Shown in pieces: positions 26,405-38,501 of a stretch of 64,000 bases of DNA. The stretch covers positions 23,288-87,287 of the forward strand of contig JBFXBH010000002.1 of assembly GCA_050183355.1 (NCBI GenBank). The letters are read 5' to 3'. How positions within the stretch are numbered: the stretch's first letter is position 1; the number at the start of each line of letters is the position of its first letter. The stretch is from Vicinamibacterales bacterium (lineage in GTDB: Bacteria > Acidobacteriota > Vicinamibacteria > Vicinamibacterales > UBA2999). The notes beneath the pieces are model-generated. The model was not told the DNA's origin, made no database searches, and saw only the letters and a program-made list of their open reading frames with translations. The translations under genes and the position numbers were made by a program.

Positions 26405-28097
<1,693 letters not shown>

Positions 28098-29476: not shown

Positions 29477-29500
29477 CGGACACGCTTCTATACTTCCCAC

Positions 29501-30187
29501 ATGGCAGCCCACACCAAGCTCTGGTACCTTGAGCGGTTCCGCATGCTCGATGTCGTGCCGGCTCATCAGCGGCAGGTCGTCGAGAAGATGACGCGGATGC
29601 TCGAGGTCAAGCGTGGCCAGCGGATCTATATCCACGGCGACCCCAGTGACCAGGTATTCCTCCTGAAGGCCGGTGTCGTGAAGATCGCCCGGCTGGGTCC
29701 GCGGCAGCAGGAAACGATTCTGGCGTTTCTCTATCCCGGGGATGTCTTCGGCGAGCTTGCGATCGTGGATCAGAGCCCGCGCGATCACGTGGCCGAGGCG
29801 CACGAGGACACCGTGCTCTGCGCGCTCAGCCGCGATCTGGTGATCCGCATTGCGCAGGAGGCGCCGGCGCTCGGCTATCACATCACCAAGGTCATGGGTC
29901 AGCGGGTGAAGCGGCTCGAGACTCGCTTGAGTGAGCTGCTCGGCAAGGGTGCCGCCGCTCGGGTGGCCCACACGCTCGTCGAGTTGGCGGAGGCCTACGG
30001 CGTACCGGACGCCGCCGGCGTGCTGGTCCCGCTTCGGCTGAGTCAGTCGGATATCGGGAATCTGGTGGGGCTGACACGCGAGACAGTGAACATCGTGCTG
30101 CAGGACTTCCGTCAGCGCGGTCTCGTGCTCGCCGAGCGGCGGGCCATCAGGATTGCCGACATGGCAGGTCTCCGCGCGGTCTCGTAG
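29501..30187 (+). CDS. Crp/Fnr-family transcriptional regulator
   Basis: 228 aa. cNMP-binding-like beta-roll (VFLLKAGVVKI...GDVFGELA) and a C-terminal HTH with LTRETVNIVL (RETV as in E. coli CRP recognition helix). Confidence 0.9.
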   Translation: MAAHTKLWYLERFRMLDVVPAHQRQVVEKMTRMLEVKRGQRIYIHGDPSDQVFLLKAGVVKIARLGPRQQETILAFLYPGDVFGELAIVDQSPRDHVAEAHEDTVLCALSRDLVIRIAQEAPALGYHITKVMGQRVKRLETRLSELLGKGAAARVAHTLVELAEAYGVPDAAGVLVPLRLSQSDIGNLVGLTRETVNIVLQDFRQRGLVLAERRAIRIADMAGLRAVS

Positions 30188-30777: not shown

Positions 30778-31917
30778 TTATCGGCCGGCTCGCTGCGGGC
30801 CAGCCGTCCTGCGCATGAAGCGTCGATCGAGATGGTCCTTCCAGCGGCGGACCCAGCGTCCCTCCGCCGACCAGGGTCCCCATTCGGCAAGGCTCCGGCC
30901 GTTTCCGAGATTCAGGATCCGGAGCATCCGACGGGGCTGGTGGAACAGGACCAGGGGCTCATCGGCCAGCACCCTCCTGATGTTCGCATCGAGGACAGGC
31001 CCCTGGCGCACGGCGACCACGCCAGACTTCCGCGCCCGTCGGCCGCGGAACGTGCCGGCGTCGCCGGCCACGAAGACGCGCGCGTCGCCGACGACCCGCA
31101 ACGTGTGCTCCGTGACCGGGAAGCCGTCTGCGCCGGTGGGCAGGTCTGTCGCGTTGATCACCGGTGCGGGCGCGGACGTCGTGGCCCAGAGAATCGCCTC
31201 GCCCACGAGCGAACTGCCTCCGGCGGCGGTCACGGTGCCGCCGTTGATGCCGGTGACGCGGAGGCCGCTGAACACCTCAACGCCTGCGGCGGTCAGCGCC
31301 CTGAGTGCCCGGACCGACGCAGCCGGCGACTCGTCGCCGAGCACTCCGCGCTCACCGGCCAGCAGCGTGACCTGAAGGTCTGGCGAGATGCGGCGCAGGT
31401 AGATCGGCGCGCAGAGCGCCAGCTCGACACCCGAGGCGCCTCCGCCGACCACGATGAGGCGCGGCGCGCGTCCGTGGAGGCCAGCCTGCGCCTCCGTCCA
31501 GGTCCTTTCCAGCCGGTCGAGGAGCGAGGCGAGTGGCTTGTGCGGGACGAGGCGTGACGCGTCGACGATAGTGACTCCCTCGAACGACGGCTGCGATCCG
31601 ACGGCGATGGAGAGGACGTCAAAGGGTACGGGTTGACCCCGGTCCAGTGTGACCGTCCGGGTGGCCCGGTCGATCCCGGTCATCGACGCGACGTGGAGCT
31701 CAGCCGACGCCGCGTTGGTGAGGGCTCCGATGTCGATCAGCGCCTCCGACGGGGCGTACTCACCTGCCAGGAGCCCCGGCACCATGCCCGAGTAGATGAC
31801 GGCCGGCGTGTCGGTGACGCAGACCAGGCGGGCGTCGGGCGGTGGATGGCTGGCCCAGCGCCGCAGCACGTGCAGGTGGGCGTAGCCCATCCCGACGAGG
31901 ACAACCTGTCGGACCAT
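30778..31917 (-). CDS. FAD-dependent pyridine nucleotide-disulfide oxidoreductase (TIGR03169 'N-terminal-to-SelD'-like)
   Basis: 379 aa. VVLVGMGYAHLHVLRRW...IYSGMVPGLLAGEY and a second dinucleotide fold LIVVGGGASGVELA. The start overlaps the stop of the upstream glycosyltransferase gene (TGATG). Confidence 0.75.
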   Translation of the reverse strand: MVRQVVLVGMGYAHLHVLRRWASHPPPDARLVCVTDTPAVIYSGMVPGLLAGEYAPSEALIDIGALTNAASAELHVASMTGIDRATRTVTLDRGQPVPFDVLSIAVGSQPSFEGVTIVDASRLVPHKPLASLLDRLERTWTEAQAGLHGRAPRLIVVGGGASGVELALCAPIYLRRISPDLQVTLLAGERGVLGDESPAASVRALRALTAAGVEVFSGLRVTGINGGTVTAAGGSSLVGEAILWATTSAPAPVINATDLPTGADGFPVTEHTLRVVGDARVFVAGDAGTFRGRRARKSGVVAVRQGPVLDANIRRVLADEPLVLFHQPRRMLRILNLGNGRSLAEWGPWSAEGRWVRRWKDHLDRRFMRRTAGPQRAGR

Positions 31918-32606
31918 CAGCGAACGTGTCCGTACGCGCGCGCGAGGACGGCAGGATCGACGCCGGACCGATAGAGGATCGGCAGCACGTTCATCGCGAG
32001 CGCGAAGTAGATCGGCCGGGTCGCAAATCGACGACCCGACACGATGACATCCCGGCGCAGCGTGCGCACCAGGCCCGCGCGGCGCAAGCGCCGGCTGAAC
32101 TCGAGATCTTCGAACAGCGGCTGGTCCGGAAATCCTCCCACGGCGTCGAATACACTCCGACGCGCGAAGATCGCCTGGTCGCCGTAGGGAAGCCTGGTGT
32201 ACCGGGAGCGAAGATCAGCCAGCCGCACGAGCGTCGACAGAACCGGAGTTGGCGTGTCCAGCACGGTGCGGGTCGTGAAGGCGCCGCCGACCGTATCAGG
32301 GTCTTCCAGCGCGCCGGCGATGCGCGCGGTGACGTCGGCAGGCAGGCGGACGTCGGCGTGGAGGAAGAGCAGCACATCGCCGCGGGCAGCCTTGGCGCCC
32401 GCGTTCAATTGTGGGCCTCGTCCGCGCGGCGCGCTGAGAAATCTGGCTCGCGTGGCCCGCACGCACGCCTCGGTCTCGTCCTCGCTGCCGCCGTCGGCGA
32501 CGACTACTTCGAAGACACCCGCGAGACGCTCCAGCGCAGCCAACTGCCCGGGGATGGCGCGCGCCTCGTTCAATGTCGGGATGACGATCGAAACGGACAG
32601 GCTCAC
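31917..32606 (-). CDS. family-2 glycosyltransferase, TIGR04283-like (rSAM/selenodomain-associated; 'arsenosugar biosynthesis glycosyltransferase')
   Basis: 229 aa. VSIVIPTLNEA...VVVADGGSEDET...LLFLHADVRLP...YGDQAIFARRSVF, typical of this family. Co-located with arsS, arsM and a DUF2064 gene. Confidence 0.8.
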   Translation of the reverse strand: MSLSVSIVIPTLNEARAIPGQLAALERLAGVFEVVVADGGSEDETEACVRATRARFLSAPRGRGPQLNAGAKAARGDVLLFLHADVRLPADVTARIAGALEDPDTVGGAFTTRTVLDTPTPVLSTLVRLADLRSRYTRLPYGDQAIFARRSVFDAVGGFPDQPLFEDLEFSRRLRRAGLVRTLRRDVIVSGRRFATRPIYFALAMNVLPILYRSGVDPAVLARAYGHVR

Positions 32607-33289
32607 GCCTGGTCTCCGGTCCGTCGGGATGTCACGTCGAGCTGGGCGATGGCCGCGGCGGTCGCCGGGGCCCGCCGCGCCAGGGTGGCCGGCCGCTGGC
32701 GGAGGCAGCGCAGGCCGGCTTCATCGTCGACGTCGTGCCAGGAGGCTATCGTGGCAACATCCAGCCCGAGGCCCTGCAGACGCGCGAGTGTGTCGCGGCC
32801 GGTCCGAGGCTGACTCCAGGCGAGGCCCGCGAGCAGCTGTGGCGGGCAGCGCGTGAGGCCCAGCAGGTAGAAGCCGCCGTCGTCGGCGGGGCCGAGCACC
32901 GCCTCGTGCGTGCGGAGCAACCGTCTGGTGGACGCCAGCCGGTTAGCGGGGAGGTCCGGGACATCCGTGCCGATCACGATGGCCGCTTCGTGCGAGCGCA
33001 GAGCCCGCCGCAGCACGCGGGTCATCCGGTCGCCGAGGTCGCCTGTGCCCTGCGGCCAGATCTCGGAGCCGCCCGGCGCGGCTGCCGCCATGGCGCGCAC
33101 ATCCGTCGTCGCGATGACACAGTCGGCCCAGTCGAGCGCGCGAACGGTCGACCAGGTGTCGCGCAGAAACGCCAGCGCGAGATCCGCCGCCGGTCCCGAT
33201 CCGACCGTGCGCGCCAGGCGTGTCTTCACACGTCCAGGAAGAGGCGGTTTGGCAAAGACGCAGATGCGGATGCGGCCGCCCGGCGTCAT
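32603..33289 (-). CDS. DUF2064 / TIGR04282-like glycosyltransferase (rSAM/selenodomain-associated)
   Basis: Start at the internal Met (ATGA overlap with the upstream gene). ICVFAKPPLPGRVKTRL...IGTDVPDL...GPADDGGFYLLGL motifs of DUF2064. Confidence 0.8.
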   Translation of the reverse strand: MTPGGRIRICVFAKPPLPGRVKTRLARTVGSGPAADLALAFLRDTWSTVRALDWADCVIATTDVRAMAAAAPGGSEIWPQGTGDLGDRMTRVLRRALRSHEAAIVIGTDVPDLPANRLASTRRLLRTHEAVLGPADDGGFYLLGLTRCPPQLLAGLAWSQPRTGRDTLARLQGLGLDVATIASWHDVDDEAGLRCLRQRPATLARRAPATAAAIAQLDVTSRRTGDQA

Positions 33290-34791
33290 CGGCGCCACGC
33301 GAGCAACCCCGTCAGTACGCGCCGGACGCGGGGTGTCAGGCGCGTTCGATTCCACTCGTCCCCCAGCCGCTTCCATGCCTCGGCCACGGTCGGGTAGGGA
33401 TGCACCGTGGAGGCAAGGGTGCCCAGCCGGATGCCGGCTGCCATCATCAACGCCATCTCTCCGATCGCCTCACCGGCGTGGGGCGCGACCATGGTGGCGC
33501 CGAGGACCCGCCCGGCACGATCCGTCCGGACCCGGGCGAAGCCGTCGGTGGCGCCGTCGAGCACGGCACGATCGACATTCGTCATCGGCACGGTGAAGGT
33601 CGAGATATCAGCGCGATCGGCGGCCTCGGACTCCGGCAGCCCCACGCTCGCGACTTCCGGATCGGTGTACGTACAGGAGGGAATGACGAGCGCGCTGGCG
33701 CGCTCGCGACCGAAGAAGAGCGCGTTCTGGACGGCGATGCGGGCCATGGCGTCGGCCGCGTGCGTGAAGGCCGGCAGGCCTGTGATGTCGCCCGCGGCGT
33801 AGACCGCGCGATTGGTCGTACGCAGGAAGTCGTCGACGATCACGCCACGCGGTCCGGCGGTGATGCCGGCGGCGCCGAGGTTGAGTCCGTCGACGTTCGG
33901 CCGCCGGCCGGCCGCCACGAGCAGCGCATCGCCATGCACGGTACGTTCGCGCCCCTCGTGGTCGGCGACGAGGAACAGCCCCTGGGCGTCACGACCAGCC
34001 AGGCGGATGGCAGCTCCGAGGATCAGACGCACGCCATCAGACTCGAGCGCGCGGGCCACGATGGCACCTGCGTCCGCATCGTCTCTGGGGAGCACGCGAG
34101 CACTGTCGCTCACGACCGTCACCTCCGACCCCAGGCGCGCGAAGACCTGCGCCAGTTCGCAGCCAATCGGCCCGGCACCGATGACGGTAAGCCGCGGAGG
34201 ACAGGTCTCCAGCGAGAAGACGGTCTCGTTGGTCAGCACGGGCACCCCCTCGAGGCCCGGGATCGGCGGCACCGCCGCTCGCGCACCCGTCGCGATGATT
34301 GCCCTCGTGAAGCGGAGCCGCGCGCCGGCCGCGTCAAGGACGCGGGGTTCGGCGAACCGGGCCCCGCCCAGAAAGACGTCGATGCCGAGACCGGCCAAGC
34401 GTGCCACGGAATCGTGTGGCGCGAGTGACAACCGCAGCGCGCGCATCCGGTGCATCACGGCGTCGAAGTCGATCGCTGGAGCGCCCGGCACCTGGACGCC
34501 ATAGGCCGCGGCGCCCCTCACGCCGGCCGCGGCCCGGCCCGATCGAATGAGCGCCTTCGACGGCACGCACCCATAGTTCAGGCAATCCCCGCCCAGGCGG
34601 TGTCGTTCGACGATGGCCACGCGCGCACCGAGCGAAGCGGCCCCGACGGCACTGACCAGTCCCGCGGTGCCGCCGCCGACGACGACCAGGTTGTAGCGCG
34701 GCGCGGGCTCGGGATTGCGCCAGTCGGCCGGCCGTACGTGATGCAGAAGGGCCTGGTCCGTTTCGGCCCCCGGGCCTGTGTGGAGGGTCAT
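33286..34791 (-). CDS. MerA-like pyridine nucleotide-disulfide oxidoreductase (no C-terminal Cys pair)
   Basis: Start at the internal Met MTLHTG (ATGA overlap with the upstream gene). VVVGGGTAGL, redox-active GGDCLNYGCVPSK and HPYPT(VAEA) dimerisation motif. It lacks the MerA CC tail. Confidence 0.85.
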   Translation of the reverse strand: MTLHTGPGAETDQALLHHVRPADWRNPEPAPRYNLVVVGGGTAGLVSAVGAASLGARVAIVERHRLGGDCLNYGCVPSKALIRSGRAAAGVRGAAAYGVQVPGAPAIDFDAVMHRMRALRLSLAPHDSVARLAGLGIDVFLGGARFAEPRVLDAAGARLRFTRAIIATGARAAVPPIPGLEGVPVLTNETVFSLETCPPRLTVIGAGPIGCELAQVFARLGSEVTVVSDSARVLPRDDADAGAIVARALESDGVRLILGAAIRLAGRDAQGLFLVADHEGRERTVHGDALLVAAGRRPNVDGLNLGAAGITAGPRGVIVDDFLRTTNRAVYAAGDITGLPAFTHAADAMARIAVQNALFFGRERASALVIPSCTYTDPEVASVGLPESEAADRADISTFTVPMTNVDRAVLDGATDGFARVRTDRAGRVLGATMVAPHAGEAIGEMALMMAAGIRLGTLASTVHPYPTVAEAWKRLGDEWNRTRLTPRVRRVLTGLLAWRR

Positions 34792-35495
34792 ACGTGCGCC
34801 GTCCGCGCAGGGGGATCGGGTTGGTGCAGTTCGCGCGTCAGCGCACGACGCGCTACCCGCGTCAGCGCGACGACGACGGCCACCGTTGCGGCCAGGCCGA
34901 CGCCGGCCGAGATCTGCCGCAGCGTGCCGCCCGCGAGGTCGCCGCGCGCGAGCGTGGCCACGTCGCGGACCAGCGATCCGAGGTAGACGAACAGGAATGT
35001 CGCGGGCAGCATGCCGACAAACGACGCGGCGACATAGTCGCGGAGCCGCACCGCCGTCAGGCCGAGCGCGTAGTTCAGCATGCCAAACGGCACGAGGGGA
35101 GACAGCCGGAGGAGGACGACGATCCTGAAACCATGGGCGCCGATGGCGGCATCGATCGCGTGAAAGCGCGGATCGGCCGCGGCCCGGTTCGCCACCGCGT
35201 CCCGCAGGACCGTCCTGCCGAGCAGGAACGCGACGGTAGCGGCCGCGACGCTGACTGGCGAGACGAGCAGCGTCCCGAGCAGAGGTCCGTAGGCGAAGCC
35301 CGCTCCGACCGTCAGCACCGAGCCCGGCAACAGCAGGATCGTGACGGCGACGTAGACACCCGCATAGACGAGTGCGCCCATCGGACCGGCGTCGCGCACC
35401 CACTCCGCGAGGCCGGCCAGCCACTCGCGCGCGGGCAGGACGAGCGCGGCCTCCGCGACCAGCGACAACGCTGCCAGCACGCCGAGCGCAGGCAT
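34788..35495 (-). CDS. TVP38/TMEM64 (DedA/SNARE-associated) family membrane protein
   Basis: Polytopic membrane protein with LLPGSVLTVGAGFAYG and RLSPLVPFGMLNYALGLT motifs. Start set at Met 35495; the longer 35603 start would overlap arsS by 62 nt. Confidence 0.75.
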   Translation of the reverse strand: MPALGVLAALSLVAEAALVLPAREWLAGLAEWVRDAGPMGALVYAGVYVAVTILLLPGSVLTVGAGFAYGPLLGTLLVSPVSVAAATVAFLLGRTVLRDAVANRAAADPRFHAIDAAIGAHGFRIVVLLRLSPLVPFGMLNYALGLTAVRLRDYVAASFVGMLPATFLFVYLGSLVRDVATLARGDLAGGTLRQISAGVGLAATVAVVVALTRVARRALTRELHQPDPPARTAHV

Positions 35496-35541
35496 CCACA
35501 GCCGGGAGCGTCCGGTTACCGAATCCGGTCCGGTCGGCACG

Positions 35542-36543
35542 TCAGACCACGGCTCCGGAGCAGCCCGACCCGGCGCCCGCCGTGCATCCGAAGCAGTGTC
35601 CACCGGTGGCGACCCGCGCGCCTCTCAGGCCTCCCAGGTCCGAGACGTCCCAGATCGTCGGGCGTCCCTGTGGCGTCGCCGCCATGGGCAGGTCCAGCAT
35701 CTGGTTGAAGTCGCAGTCGTAGAGTCCGCCATCCCAGCTGACACTCACCAGCGACCGGCACATCAGACCGGCGACCGTGGCGGGATTGAAGTGCTGGACG
35801 AGCAGACTCATGTACGCGTCCATCCGGCCCTCGCGTTCGAGCATTCCCGCGAACCGGCGAATCGGCATGTTGGTGATCGTCAGGAGGTGGTGAAAGACGA
35901 TGCCGAAGCGGTCGCCGAGCGCATCGCGATACTGGGCTTCCAACTCGGCCTGCGCGGGCGGCAGTGATGCGCCGAGCGGATTGAAGACCAGATCGAGCCT
36001 GAGCGGAGACTCGGGCTGGCCGTACCCGAGCGCGTTCAACTGCCGCAGGGCCTCGATGCTGGCGTCGAACACGCCGAGGCCACGCTGGCGGTCCACGTTG
36101 TCCAGGGTGTAGCAGGGCAGACTCGCGACGATGTCTACACCCTGCGCTGCCAGGAAGCCGGCGAGGTCCTCCTGGCCCGGCTCACGCAGGATCGTCAGAT
36201 TGCAGCGATCGATGACGCGCAGGCCGCGGGCTCTTGCCGCCAGGACGAGCGGGCGGAAGTGCGCATTCAGTTCGGGCGCGCCACCGGTCAGGTCGACGGT
36301 CCGCAGCCCCGGGTTGGCGTCCAGCAGCTCGATCAGGCGATCGGCCACCTCCGCGCCCAGGGCTTCGGTCCGCTTCGGTCCGGCTTCGACGTGGCAGTGG
36401 TGACACGCTTGATTGCATACGCGTCCCACGTTGATCTGCAGGGTGTCCACGACGCCTCGCGCCAGCGTGGGGACACCGGCCGACTGGAGGGCCGACTCGA
36501 ACGACGGCGCGGTATCGAGGAGGGCCGGTACCATCAGCAGCAC
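35542..36543 (-). CDS. arsS: arsenosugar-biosynthesis-type radical SAM protein ArsS (TIGR04167 radical SAM/Cys-rich family)
   Basis: CNQACHHC (CX3CX2C) and the family-typical C-terminal GGHCFGCTAGAGSGCSG Cys-rich tail. An ATG at 36534 (TGATG overlap with arsM) is an alternative to GTG 36543. Confidence 0.85.
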   Translation of the reverse strand: MLLMVPALLDTAPSFESALQSAGVPTLARGVVDTLQINVGRVCNQACHHCHVEAGPKRTEALGAEVADRLIELLDANPGLRTVDLTGGAPELNAHFRPLVLAARARGLRVIDRCNLTILREPGQEDLAGFLAAQGVDIVASLPCYTLDNVDRQRGLGVFDASIEALRQLNALGYGQPESPLRLDLVFNPLGASLPPAQAELEAQYRDALGDRFGIVFHHLLTITNMPIRRFAGMLEREGRMDAYMSLLVQHFNPATVAGLMCRSLVSVSWDGGLYDCDFNQMLDLPMAATPQGRPTIWDVSDLGGLRGARVATGGHCFGCTAGAGSGCSGAVV

Positions 36544-37709
36544 CCGTCCTCACCGGAGCAGAGCGCGGCGGCGTCTGTCGTGAGGTTGTAGTCCTCGCCC
36601 TTTGTTTCGCGCGGATCGCGCACCAGCGTGCCGCCCGTGCACGGGAACGGCCTGGCGTCGCCCTCCGCGACCGGTACGACCGGGTCGATCAATTCCACGT
36701 GCTCCCGGTACGGCGCCTGGGAGAAGACGTTGAATGTCTTGCGGCACACGGCAGTCCGCACGCCGCGCCGCAGCCGGTGCCCGTCGTCGTCGAGCACTTC
36801 CCGGAACGGGCCCTTGTACACGACCGCGTCCTTGTGGTCGAGACAGGGGCCGTCGCTGTGCTTCCACGCCACGATTGTCATGCTGCGGAACTCGATGCCC
36901 TCCACGGTACGCCATGCGTCGACCGCGCGCGACGCGATTGTCAGGGCGCGAAACCCCGCGCGCTCGAACGCCAGAAGGAACTCATCCTCGCGCAGGGCAC
37001 CGGAGACGCAGCCGGTCCAGAGCTCGGGATCCTGCCGCAGATGGTCGGGCACCGCTTCGTCCGCGACGATGTCCGAGATCACCACCCGCCCGCCGACGCG
37101 CACCACCCGGAACAACTCGTCGAACATGCGCGCCTTCTGGGACGCCTCGACCAGATTGAGCACGCAGTTGGAGATGACCACATCCACGGAGCCGTCGGCG
37201 ATGAGGGGCGTCTGGCGGCGCAGGCGCTCGGCTTCCGCCTCTGCCCGGGAGAAGGCTCCGACGGAGTCCGCCGGGGACGATGCGAGGTAGCGGTCGAAGG
37301 CATCGAGGTCGAGCGCCAGATCCTGGATCCGGGCCCTGGCGAACCGGACGTTCGAGAAGCCGACTGCCGCGGCGACGGTCGGTGCACTCCGGCGGGCGAG
37401 GGCAAGCATTTCCTCGTTCATGTCGACGCCGATGACCGCGCCCTCAGGTCCGACGACCTGACTGGCGATGAAACAGACCTTGCCTCCGCCTGAACCCAGA
37501 TCCAGGACCCTCTCGCCCGGCTGGAGATACCGGCTGGGGTCGCCGCAGCCGTAGTCCCGTTCCAGGACCTCCTCCGGAATCGCCCTCAGGAGGGCCGGAT
37601 CGTAGGACACGGGGCAGCACAGCGCGGCCTCCCTCGCCTGGGCGGCAGCGCCGTATCGTTCGCTCACCGCGTGTTCAACGCTCAAGTTGCTGAGGGCGCG
37701 CACTGACAT
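36534..37709 (-). CDS. arsM: arsenite S-adenosylmethionine methyltransferase ArsM-like
   Basis: Start at the internal Met MSVRAL. CCPVSYD...YGCGDP, SAM motif VLDLGSGGGK, TGCVSGAL, plus a Cys-rich C-terminal domain ending in GCC. Confidence 0.85.
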   Translation of the reverse strand: MSVRALSNLSVEHAVSERYGAAAQAREAALCCPVSYDPALLRAIPEEVLERDYGCGDPSRYLQPGERVLDLGSGGGKVCFIASQVVGPEGAVIGVDMNEEMLALARRSAPTVAAAVGFSNVRFARARIQDLALDLDAFDRYLASSPADSVGAFSRAEAEAERLRRQTPLIADGSVDVVISNCVLNLVEASQKARMFDELFRVVRVGGRVVISDIVADEAVPDHLRQDPELWTGCVSGALREDEFLLAFERAGFRALTIASRAVDAWRTVEGIEFRSMTIVAWKHSDGPCLDHKDAVVYKGPFREVLDDDGHRLRRGVRTAVCRKTFNVFSQAPYREHVELIDPVVPVAEGDARPFPCTGGTLVRDPRETKGEDYNLTTDAAALCSGEDGCC

Positions 37710-37854: not shown

Positions 37855-37870
37855 TGTGAGGTCGGTCACA
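37855..37870. promoter_or_regulatory. perfect CRP-type palindrome TGTGA-N6-TCACA (site 2)
   Basis: cTGTGAggtcggTCACAg, in the 243-bp divergent region between arsM (start 37709) and the CMD-family gene (start 37953). Confidence 0.6.
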
Positions 37871-37952: not shown

Positions 37953-38501
37953 ATGAACTACACCGTGCATTCCATCGAGTCCGCTCCGGCGGCTTCCAAA
38001 GATACATTGGCTGCCGTCGCAAGGGCCTACGGGTTTCTGCCGAATCTGATGGGCGTGATGGCCGAGGCGCCTGCCGCGCTCAAGGCCTACCCGACGCTGA
38101 TCGGGCTGTTCGACCAGACGTCGTTCACGCCGACGGAGCGGCAGGTCGTACTCCTGGCTACCAGCGTCGAGAACGGGTGCGACTACTGCGTGGCCGCGCA
38201 TACGGTGATCGCGGGCATGCAGGGCGTGGCCGGCGAGGTCGTGCAGGCGATTCGCGCGGGTCAGCCCCTTGCCGATACGAGGCTCGAGGCCCTGCGCCGC
38301 TTCACGATCGCGGTGGTCGGTTCACGGGGACGCGTCTCCGACGCGGACACCACGAGCTTCCTCGGCGCTGGATACACACTGGGGCAGGTGCTGGAGGTCG
38401 TGCTGGGCGTCGCCATCAAGACGCTGTCGAACTACGTGAACCACATTGCCGAGACGCCCATCGATGGCGCGTTTGCAGCGGCGGCGTCGCCGGCCGCGTA
38501 G
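37953..38501 (+). CDS. carboxymuconolactone decarboxylase (AhpD-like) family protein
   Basis: AAGGAGAA RBS. 182 aa with a CxxC in the AhpD-like context (ENGCDYCVAAH). Confidence 0.85.
   Translation: MNYTVHSIESAPAASKDTLAAVARAYGFLPNLMGVMAEAPAALKAYPTLIGLFDQTSFTPTERQVVLLATSVENGCDYCVAAHTVIAGMQGVAGEVVQAIRAGQPLADTRLEALRRFTIAVVGSRGRVSDADTTSFLGAGYTLGQVLEVVLGVAIKTLSNYVNHIAETPIDGAFAAAASPAA

Follow-up and report, generated by a model that had tools for sequence, protein, structure and literature searches.

We describe a seven-gene operon built around arsM and arsS in a 64,000-nucleotide stretch of DNA (the window) from a Vicinamibacterales bacterium of the phylum Acidobacteriota (assembly GCA_050183355.1, contig JBFXBH010000002.1). 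The operon encodes, in order, ArsM, the radical S-adenosylmethionine (SAM) enzyme ArsS, a TVP38/DedA membrane protein, a MerA-like flavoprotein, a TIGR04282/DUF2064 protein, a TIGR04283 family 2 glycosyltransferase (GT2) and a TIGR03169-like flavoprotein. We consider it probable that these genes form one transcription unit for an arsenosugar-type organoarsenical, with the steps proposed below as the best explanation. The core association of ArsS with TIGR04282 and TIGR04283 is already curated in NCBIfam, and the operon is a modular extension of the ArsM-ArsS pathway.

Seven consecutive minus-strand open reading frames (ORFs) fill positions 30778-37709, in a genome of ~70% G+C, and analysis of their junctions confirmed a real, tightly packed single operon: with the best-supported starts, all six junctions overlap or abut (Table 1). 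The original prediction, made from the sequence alone, had given this gene content, minus-strand order and tight coupling, all of which were borne out by the ORFs, the junctions and a public contig (L159) that encodes a 97% identical ArsS and carries the same seven genes. Independent gene calls on that contig (391, 330, 250, 501, 228, 229 and 375 aa) match the chosen starts, including that of the 250-aa TVP38. Five start/stop overlaps had been predicted, and they stand; the 46-nt gap predicted at the sixth junction arises from an alternative TVP38 start, the ATG at 35495, and disappears with the L159-backed GTG start, which leaves 1 nt after arsS. The longest ORF for the flavoprotein, of 737 aa (33286-35499, minus strand), was considered as a TVP38-flavoprotein fusion and rejected as a high-G+C artefact that runs out of frame through TVP38, the real start being the ATG at 34791. 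Terminator-like and sigma-70-like or other promoter-like sites were sought inside the operon on its own strand, and none was seen. The window originates from a landfill metagenome, and the operon is covered by contigs ~91-93% identical that come from metagenomes of rivers, drinking water and freshwater; the earlier description of the host as a soil bacterium was thus not borne out.

Table 1 Features of the arsM-arsS operon and its flanks (positions in the window).
Feature	Position	Strand	Remarks
arsM	36534..37709	-	391 aa; ATG start, AGGAG 8 nt upstream
arsS	35542..36534	-	330 aa; 1-nt TGATG overlap with arsM
TVP38/DedA (COG0398-type) membrane protein	34788..35540	-	250 aa; GTG start, 1 nt past arsS stop
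FAD oxidoreductase, class I flavoprotein disulfide reductase (NF004991 family, MerA/LipDH-like)	33286..34791	-	501 aa; ATGA overlap with TVP38
TIGR04282/DUF2064 protein	32603..33289	-	228 aa; ATGA overlap with flavoprotein
TIGR04283 GT2 glycosyltransferase	31917..32606	-	229 aa; GTGA overlap with TIGR04282
TIGR03169-like flavoprotein	30778..31917	-	379 aa; TGATG overlap with TIGR04283
Perfect CRP-type box TGTGA-N6-TCACA	37855..37870		between arsM and divergent AhpD-like gene
AhpD/CMD-fold CxxC protein (CDYC)	37953..38501	+	PF02627 CMD and ahpD core domain; divergent from arsM
Crp-family regulator gene	29477-30187		near operon, downstream side
Genuine MerA without NmerA	26700-28097	+	781 bits on PRK13748; 3 kb from operon

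On its hidden Markov model (HMM), ArsS is a clear member of TIGR04167 (427.1 bits, cut-off 300), and it is predicted to add a 5'-deoxyadenosyl group to dimethyl-As(III). Pfam-type HMMs detect a Radical_SAM domain and a C-terminal, Cys-rich DUF3641 domain (174.7 bits); the CX3CX2C motif is formed by C40, C44 and C47, and C111, C141, C259, C274, C314, C317 and C325 are invariant across 20 homologues. Judged by its profile scores, ArsM is an ArsM-family protein from an uncurated clade, with 336 bits on its best model, the arsinothricin-type NF040538 (cut-off 500), 193 bits on PRK11873 (NF008823; cut-off 263) and 128 bits on the AsSugarArsM model NF038099 (cut-off 400). Its SAM-binding fold is recognized by Methyltransf_31 (99 bits), and alignment with CmArsM (4fs8/4kw7) indicated that the As(III)-binding cysteines of that enzyme (C72, C174, C224 and an N-terminal Cys) are kept: the cysteines of the YGCG, SNCV and TGCV motifs are C55, C182 and C234, and a CC pair lies at 31/32. 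All seven family assignments of the original prediction were thus backed by HMMs, two of them, ArsM and the TIGR03169-like protein, with scores under the curated cut-offs. ArsM is of the 'type A' kind, positioned upstream of ArsS. A C-terminal Cys-Cys closes 23 of 23 ArsS-linked type-A homologues (L002-L118), including the window copy (36534-36542), while both inspected type-B ArsMs end in GGGCC. This tail is reminiscent of the one with which MerA hands over its metal, and of the ArsM families that NCBIfam lists as 'UU' selenoproteins.

ArsM and ArsS, whose roles are described in PMC8552651, PMC12159101 and bioRxiv 10.64898/2026.04.29.721666, are the only parts of the operon with experimental precedent, as had been stated originally. 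The pathway of Synechocystis sp. PCC 6803 (Xue et al. 2019; Cheng et al. 2021, as cited in PMC8552651 and PMC12159101) resembles the operon in its adjacent arsM and arsS, its full TIGR04167 ArsS with CX3CX2C and DUF3641, and the As(III)-binding cysteines of its ArsM. However, ArsM here belongs to another clade, scoring far lower on the arsenosugar-ArsM than on the arsinothricin-type model, the host Acidobacterium is not photosynthetic, and five more translationally coupled genes are present, none of them characterized. The ArsM cysteines 31/32, 55, 182 and 234 also correspond to BgArsM 30, 54, 181 and 233 of the arsinothricin cluster arsQML of Burkholderia gladioli (PMC8552651). In view of the ArsM score, an arsinothricin cluster was considered and rejected: the radical SAM enzyme, the only one in the operon, is unambiguously ArsS, and neither an ArsL-type, acyl carrier protein (ACP)-transferring radical SAM enzyme nor an ArsQ-like permease was found among the seven genes or their flanks.

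Gene neighbourhoods were compared in two sets totalling 134 loci, namely 80 ArsS loci from many phyla (the broad set) and 54 Acidobacteriota loci, the latter from the 53 genomes with an above-cut-off ArsS among 251 Acidobacteriota genomes sampled; in metagenomes ArsS forms >8000 protein clusters. Families were re-detected in both sets with locus-trained HMMs. Well-flanked broad loci (n = 48) have at least 5 kb upstream and at least 6 kb downstream of ArsS; Acidobacteriota counts take all 54 loci, not just the 32 well-flanked ones, and are given from the HMM re-scan with tblastn values in brackets. TIGR04283 was present at 23/48 well-flanked broad loci, TIGR04282 at 22, the flavoprotein at 20, TVP38 at 17, type-A ArsM at 11, methylthioadenosine (MTA) phosphorylase at 6, TIGR03169 at 4 (5/80 across all broad loci), FA_hydroxylase at 3 and PiT/PHO4 at 2. 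Among the 54 Acidobacteriota loci, the AhpD-like 'arsenosugar-associated peroxidase-like' family TIGR04169 was found at 29, TIGR04282 at 11 (10), TIGR04283 at 8 (7), TVP38 at 7, the flavoprotein at 6 (7), ArsM at 6 (13) and TIGR03169 at none. The accessory genes thus stand beside ArsS well above chance frequency, but the full set is not co-conserved with it: among the loci examined, only near-identical relatives hold the complete seven, and the operon is therefore a mosaic, one specific assembly of modules that recur elsewhere.

Compared with the 'arsenosugar biosynthesis' set of NCBIfam (TIGR04167, TIGR04282, TIGR04283, TIGR04169 and NF038099), the operon unites ArsS, TIGR04282 and TIGR04283, all over their cut-offs. 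It differs in that ArsM is not of the NF038099 type and no TIGR04169 member is present, a divergent upstream AhpD-fold CxxC protein being found instead; conversely, the curated set lacks TVP38, the NF004991 flavoprotein and TIGR03169.

Assigned enzymes in arsenosugar synthesis cover the first two steps only, those of ArsM and ArsS. For the adenosyl product, bioRxiv 10.64898/2026.04.29.721666 states that the adenine 'can then be removed' and assigns no enzymes, and none was assigned to later steps in the literature that we reached. In the same literature, in which subscription journals are incompletely covered, we found no function for TIGR04282, TIGR04283 or TIGR03169 and no link between a TVP38-reductase and arsenic. 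NCBIfam names both TIGR04282 and TIGR04283 'arsenosugar biosynthesis glycosyltransferase', a curated link to this chemistry, and both window proteins exceed their cut-offs (162.5 bits versus 134 and 213.8 bits versus 182, respectively) in the same operon as ArsS. The AlphaFold model of TIGR04282 (predicted local distance difference test (pLDDT) score 95.7) has as its top Foldseek match 3cgx, its own family's orphan structure, followed by FbiD Rv2983, 3-phosphoglycerate guanylyltransferase (7p97) and CofC (2i5e, MM2497), then by KdsB, IspD and GlmU, with glycosyltransferases ranking far lower. TIGR04282 is thus predicted to adopt a CofC/FbiD-like nucleotidyltransferase fold, and its database name as a glycosyltransferase was not upheld. 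It shares this fold with the CofC/FbiD guanylyltransferases of F420 biosynthesis (PDB 6bwh, 7p97, 2i5e; template modelling (TM) score ~0.7, E 1e-10 to 3e-12), and a transferase follows it as CofD follows CofC, although identity is only 15-26% and a GT2 takes the place of CofD. The model of TIGR04283 (pLDDT 95.1) matches the GT-A enzymes WrtF, PcManGT, GpgS, ArnC and GtrB, as would be expected of a generic GT-A GT2.

Neighbourhood data link these two families to each other and to MTA phosphorylase. TIGR04282 and TIGR04283 are fused into single polypeptides in both orders (L002, L025, L029, L080, L160/L161) and co-occur in 31 loci (odds ratio 42, p = 8e-16). MTA phosphorylase (TIGR01694, 278 bits versus an equivalog cut-off of 274.85) lies directly within 9-11 ArsS clusters and is associated with TIGR04283 across ArsS loci (p = 8e-4); in the window's genome a housekeeping copy is encoded elsewhere. 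Because of these fusions, the co-occurrence, the predicted folds and the in-cluster MTA phosphorylase, the three proteins suggest themselves as candidates for a route of phosphorolysis, activation to a nucleoside diphosphate (NDP)-arsenoribose and GT2 transfer. A membrane FA_hydroxylase (di-iron lipid hydroxylase/desaturase family) also lies directly beside ArsS in ~11-12 loci (among them L082-L084, L020, L026, L043, L047, L054, L073, L103 and L116), a neighbourhood that hints at a lipid-linked product.

The two genes between arsS and TIGR04282 form the second recurring unit. TVP38 is a putative multi-pass membrane protein of the DedA superfamily (VTT_dom, PF09335, 87.5 bits, cut-off 33.9) and falls in the COG0398/TVP38 branch. 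The flavoprotein scores 669 bits on NF004991 (cut-off 620; profile positions 9-508 of 509) and 376 bits on MerA TIGR02053, below the cut-off of 454. MerA is its best solved-structure match (E 9e-81; PDB 5x1y, 1zk7), with which it shares the class I FAD/NAD(P)H fold and an aligned CxxxxC active site, the redox pair C70/C75 of CLNYGC. In contrast to MerA, it has no NmerA domain and ends in an HPYPT..E motif without a C-terminal Cys-Cys, as the original prediction of a MerA-like CxxxxC flavoprotein lacking the CC tail had it; a genuine MerA is encoded separately. The same two domains are joined in 15 true single-ORF fusions that adjoin ArsS, such as the 713-aa protein of Pseudomonas peli (VTT_dom, Pyr_redox_2 and dimerization domain). 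The reductase fusion is described by Todor et al. (2023, PMC10127716) as the commonest fusion among DedA proteins of COG0398, with no function assigned, and shows the same domain order, VTT then Pyr_redox_2 and Pyr_redox_dim. The window differs from those fusions in having separate overlapping genes, in place of the single polypeptide of the 15 related ArsS loci, and in placing them inside an organoarsenical operon, whereas PMC10127716 ties the fusion to aerobic metabolism only and to no pathway. Across ArsS loci TVP38 and the flavoprotein are strongly associated (odds ratio 106).

The last gene product matches TIGR03169 marginally (292.3 bits, cut-off 310) over its full length (2-364 of 365). 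Its nearest solved structures are the NDH-2-like YjlD (E 3.5e-13), FSP1 and SQR, and five orthologues share no conserved Cys pair; a role as disulfide reductase was rejected on these grounds. We found no SelD domain in the protein, no SelD fusion or neighbourhood, and no SelD in the genome, which is 92% complete (best match 24 bits, cut-off 125). This only family copy in the genome is accordingly classed as NDH-2/FSP1/SQR-like, and because the genome lacks SelD it is predicted to perform no service in selenophosphate synthesis here. In ArsS loci TIGR03169 always occurs alongside the flavoprotein (5/5, p = 6e-4). The original claim of a conserved coupling to two disulfide-reductase-type flavoproteins consequently fails for TIGR03169, which is rare at ArsS loci and without a Cys pair. 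For the MerA-like protein it survives in a weaker form: the TVP38-flavoprotein pair recurs at 20/48 well-flanked broad loci and is not dedicated to ArsS.

Based on these findings, we propose a plausible mechanism. First, ArsM would methylate As(III) to dimethyl-As(III), a chemistry shown elsewhere for the family and for which the cysteines were checked here. ArsS would then add the SAM-derived 5'-deoxyadenosyl radical to yield 5'-deoxy-5'-dimethylarsinoyl-adenosine, following the precedent of Synechocystis ArsS and consistent with the family membership established here. MTA phosphorylase may remove the adenine to give arsenoribose-1-phosphate, which TIGR04282 could convert to NDP-arsenoribose, as its fold, fusions and neighbourhood suggest. 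TIGR04283 may subsequently move the arsenoribosyl group to glycerol, phosphoglycerol or a lipid acceptor. In the least certain step, TVP38 and the MerA-like flavoprotein, recruited with the TIGR03169-like protein, would keep the cysteine and arsenic chemistry reduced, either by re-reducing the disulfides of each ArsM cycle or by converting pentavalent methylarsenic to the trivalent substrate; TVP38 might additionally flip or transport product or substrate, across the membrane or within it, and the divergent AhpD-like CxxC protein is possibly part of the recruited redox module.

NAD(P)H-driven thiol or arsenic reduction is favoured for this step because of the CC tails of ArsM, the Cys-rich ArsS, the disulfides formed by ArsM and the AhpD-fold alternative partner. 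ArsM catalysis forms disulfides that need re-reduction, through a disulfide-bond cascade, according to work cited in PMC8552651. Some selenoprotein families fuse AhpD-fold CxxC proteins to ArsM (NCBIfam NF041537). ArsS is immediately preceded by a 110-aa TIGR04169 AhpD-like CxxC protein at 29/54 Acidobacteriota loci (within L085-L138). TIGR04169 and the flavoprotein never share a locus (0 of 30 and 32 loci, p = 1.4e-4), so they may be alternative suppliers of the same redox support. By analogy, mycobacterial AhpD is reduced through lipoamide dehydrogenase.

Several observations weigh against this synthesis scheme. ArsM scores below every curated ArsM cut-off, with the arsinothricin-type model closest, and the complete gene set is absent from all but the near-identical loci. 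Type-A ArsM and the flavoprotein are hardly ever found together in the broad set (0/26), and Pseudomonas-type ArsS clusters keep a fused TVP38-flavoprotein and TIGR03169 while lacking the transferase pair. TIGR04283 resembles GpgS, PcManGT, ArnC and GtrB about equally, so that soluble and lipid acceptors are not separated. Because TVP38 is without any cysteine, it is predicted to be unable to relay thiols. The pairwise co-occurrence statistics are uncorrected for phylogeny, and the public runs that hold the window sequence are DNA metagenomes only, with no RNA runs. Finally, most copies of the TVP38-flavoprotein module are not linked to ArsS, and genomes that lack ArsS carry the module too; for this reason its role need not be arsenic-specific.

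This last point leads to an alternative that we regard as unlikely, in which ArsM, ArsS and the two transferases alone constitute the arsenic pathway, while the module made up of the TVP38-flavoprotein pair and TIGR03169 would have a general function in membrane homeostasis or redox, hitch-hiking in a metal-stress island without any task specific to arsenic. NF004991 exceeds its cut-off in 66/251 Acidobacteriota genomes, many of which lack ArsS (22 genomes carry both versus 13.9 expected), and only ~8 copies adjoin ArsS, against 0.1-0.2 by chance. Among 20 ArsS-unlinked copies, 15 still have TVP38 immediately upstream, with no further neighbour in common, DedA-reductase fusions of COG0398 are a general feature tied to aerobic life (PMC10127716), and the window also holds mer, bufferin and thiol-redox genes. 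These distributions led us to reject the flavoprotein as a dedicated ArsS-specific arsenic reductase, since its Acidobacteriota copies are mostly unlinked and without other conserved neighbours. Mere hitch-hiking, however, fits poorly with the ATGA overlaps that flank the pair on both sides in mid-operon, with ArsS adjacency recurring in Myxococcota, Binatia, Acidobacteriota and many Pseudomonadota, and with the operon copy being the sole NF004991 gene of the genome. Moreover, a maximum-likelihood tree of the flavoprotein intersperses ArsS-linked and unlinked copies, which forces at least three gains or losses of linkage and excludes a single clade of linked proteins. The window flavoprotein falls in a small all-linked clade; an all-linked proteobacterial clade carries little weight, as the tree holds no unlinked proteobacterial controls. 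Because the pair is mostly unlinked, retains TVP38, adjoins ArsS more often than chance and is interspersed on the tree, we interpret it as an autonomous module recruited to ArsS loci on several occasions. Side by side with this, two ArsS-unlinked pairs (L143, L145) have a convergent TIGR04283-like GT2 with 37-38% identity and no ArsS nearby.

The remaining alternatives concern what the module acts on. One, which we think improbable, makes it a supplier of substrate rather than of housekeeping redox or export: TVP38 would import pentavalent methylated arsenic produced by other microbes, and the MerA-like and NDH-2-like flavoproteins would reduce it to the trivalent form for ArsS and ArsM, which take trivalent substrates only (PMC8552651). 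Most flavoprotein-containing Pseudomonadota ArsS loci indeed have no ArsM nearby, several ArsS clusters contain PiT/PHO4 transporters, and the Pseudomonas clusters comprise ArsS, an SSS-like transporter, the fused TVP38-flavoprotein and TIGR03169 without transferases. Set against this are the lack of biochemical precedent for these families on arsenicals, the wide occurrence of the module in ArsS-less genomes and the operon's own ArsM, which frees it from dependence on imported methylarsenic. It is likewise doubtful that TVP38, the MerA-like flavoprotein and TIGR03169 are a general metalloid uptake-and-reduction module that delivers reduced metalloid to a Cys-rich biosynthetic enzyme, ArsS/ArsM or SelD; the cargo of such a module could be pentavalent methylarsenic here and selenium oxyanions in the case of TIGR03169-SelD fusions. 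The ArsM-less proteobacterial clusters, together with the selenium links of DedA (a selenite connection cited in PMC10127716) and of TIGR03169 (defined through fusion to SelD), fit such methylarsenic uptake and reduction. The same selenium links, the fusion to SelD that also defines TIGR04369, the NCBIfam designation of ArsS as a '(seleno)protein' and the several ArsM-like families that are UU selenoproteins could point to an operon acting on selenium or another chalcogen, for example with a Se-adenosyl or seleno-sugar product. We judge this very improbable, and the selenium product entertained originally with it: SelD is missing, the cysteines that bind As(III) are retained in ArsM, ArsS has been shown to act on dimethyl-As(III), and the active-site positions here are all Cys, none of them selenocysteine. 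Overall, the original interpretation is partly supported, and synthesis of an arsenosugar-type product, with the module as recruited redox support, is the explanation that we prefer.

The operon and its relatives give testable candidates for the late steps of arsenosugar synthesis, of which TIGR04282 and TIGR04283 are backed by fusions and predicted folds. Repeated recruitment into ArsS clusters is also the first concrete biochemical context for the widespread DedA/TVP38-flavoprotein module; if the metalloid uptake-and-reduction reading were true, the module would supply the long-sought pentavalent methylarsenical reductase and a function for the COG0398 DedA-reductase fusions. As ArsS is common well outside algae and cyanobacteria, heterotrophic bacteria may have been overlooked as producers of the complex organoarsenicals of landfill, water and soil.

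The region upstream of arsM holds two features of potential relevance. Perfect CRP-type boxes occur three times in the window versus 0.02 expected, and the one next to arsM is a candidate operator to which the operon probably responds. The divergent AhpD-like CxxC protein, whose position is kept in L159, is a possible eighth component: its CDYC and the CPYC of TIGR04169 fall at the same alignment position, in a region of 62 aa with 29% identity, although it matches generic AhpD models only and is not a TIGR04169 member. Downstream lie the Crp-family regulator, a TlpA-like protein, a Met-rich DUF6789 protein and a mer operon; in L159 (13213-15754) merA sits in a merR / merT-merP-merA unit. No ArsR, ArsC or arsenite pump was found among the immediate flanking genes scanned (~26.6-45.3 kb). 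The operon sits in a metal-stress island with Crp, TlpA-like, YtxJ and bufferin genes.

Variant ArsS clusters were also noted. In the Pseudomonas loci L045, L055 and L062, which are without the transferase pair, ArsS is followed at ~+1 to +8.5 kb from arsS by the SSS-like transporter (463 aa), a metallophosphoesterase-like protein (~340 aa, no Pfam hit), the fused TVP38-flavoprotein, DUF3047, further genes and TIGR03169. A PiT/PHO4 phosphate (potentially arsenate) transporter is found within 7-8 ArsS clusters, often between ArsS and TVP38 (for example L081, 4027-5160; L101, L115 and L116). In L160 (11718-14403) and L161 (8241-10926), a 485-aa radical SAM protein, a 277-aa methyltransferase and an ArsR-type regulator are convergent on an ArsM-ArsS-(TIGR04282/TIGR04283 fusion) cluster; the first two may be an arsinothricin-like ArsL/ArsM pair beside arsenosugar-type genes. 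DUF547 proteins stand beside the TVP38-flavoprotein pair or ArsS in 11 of ~160 loci, including L094, L088, L143, L050, L078 and L160/L161.

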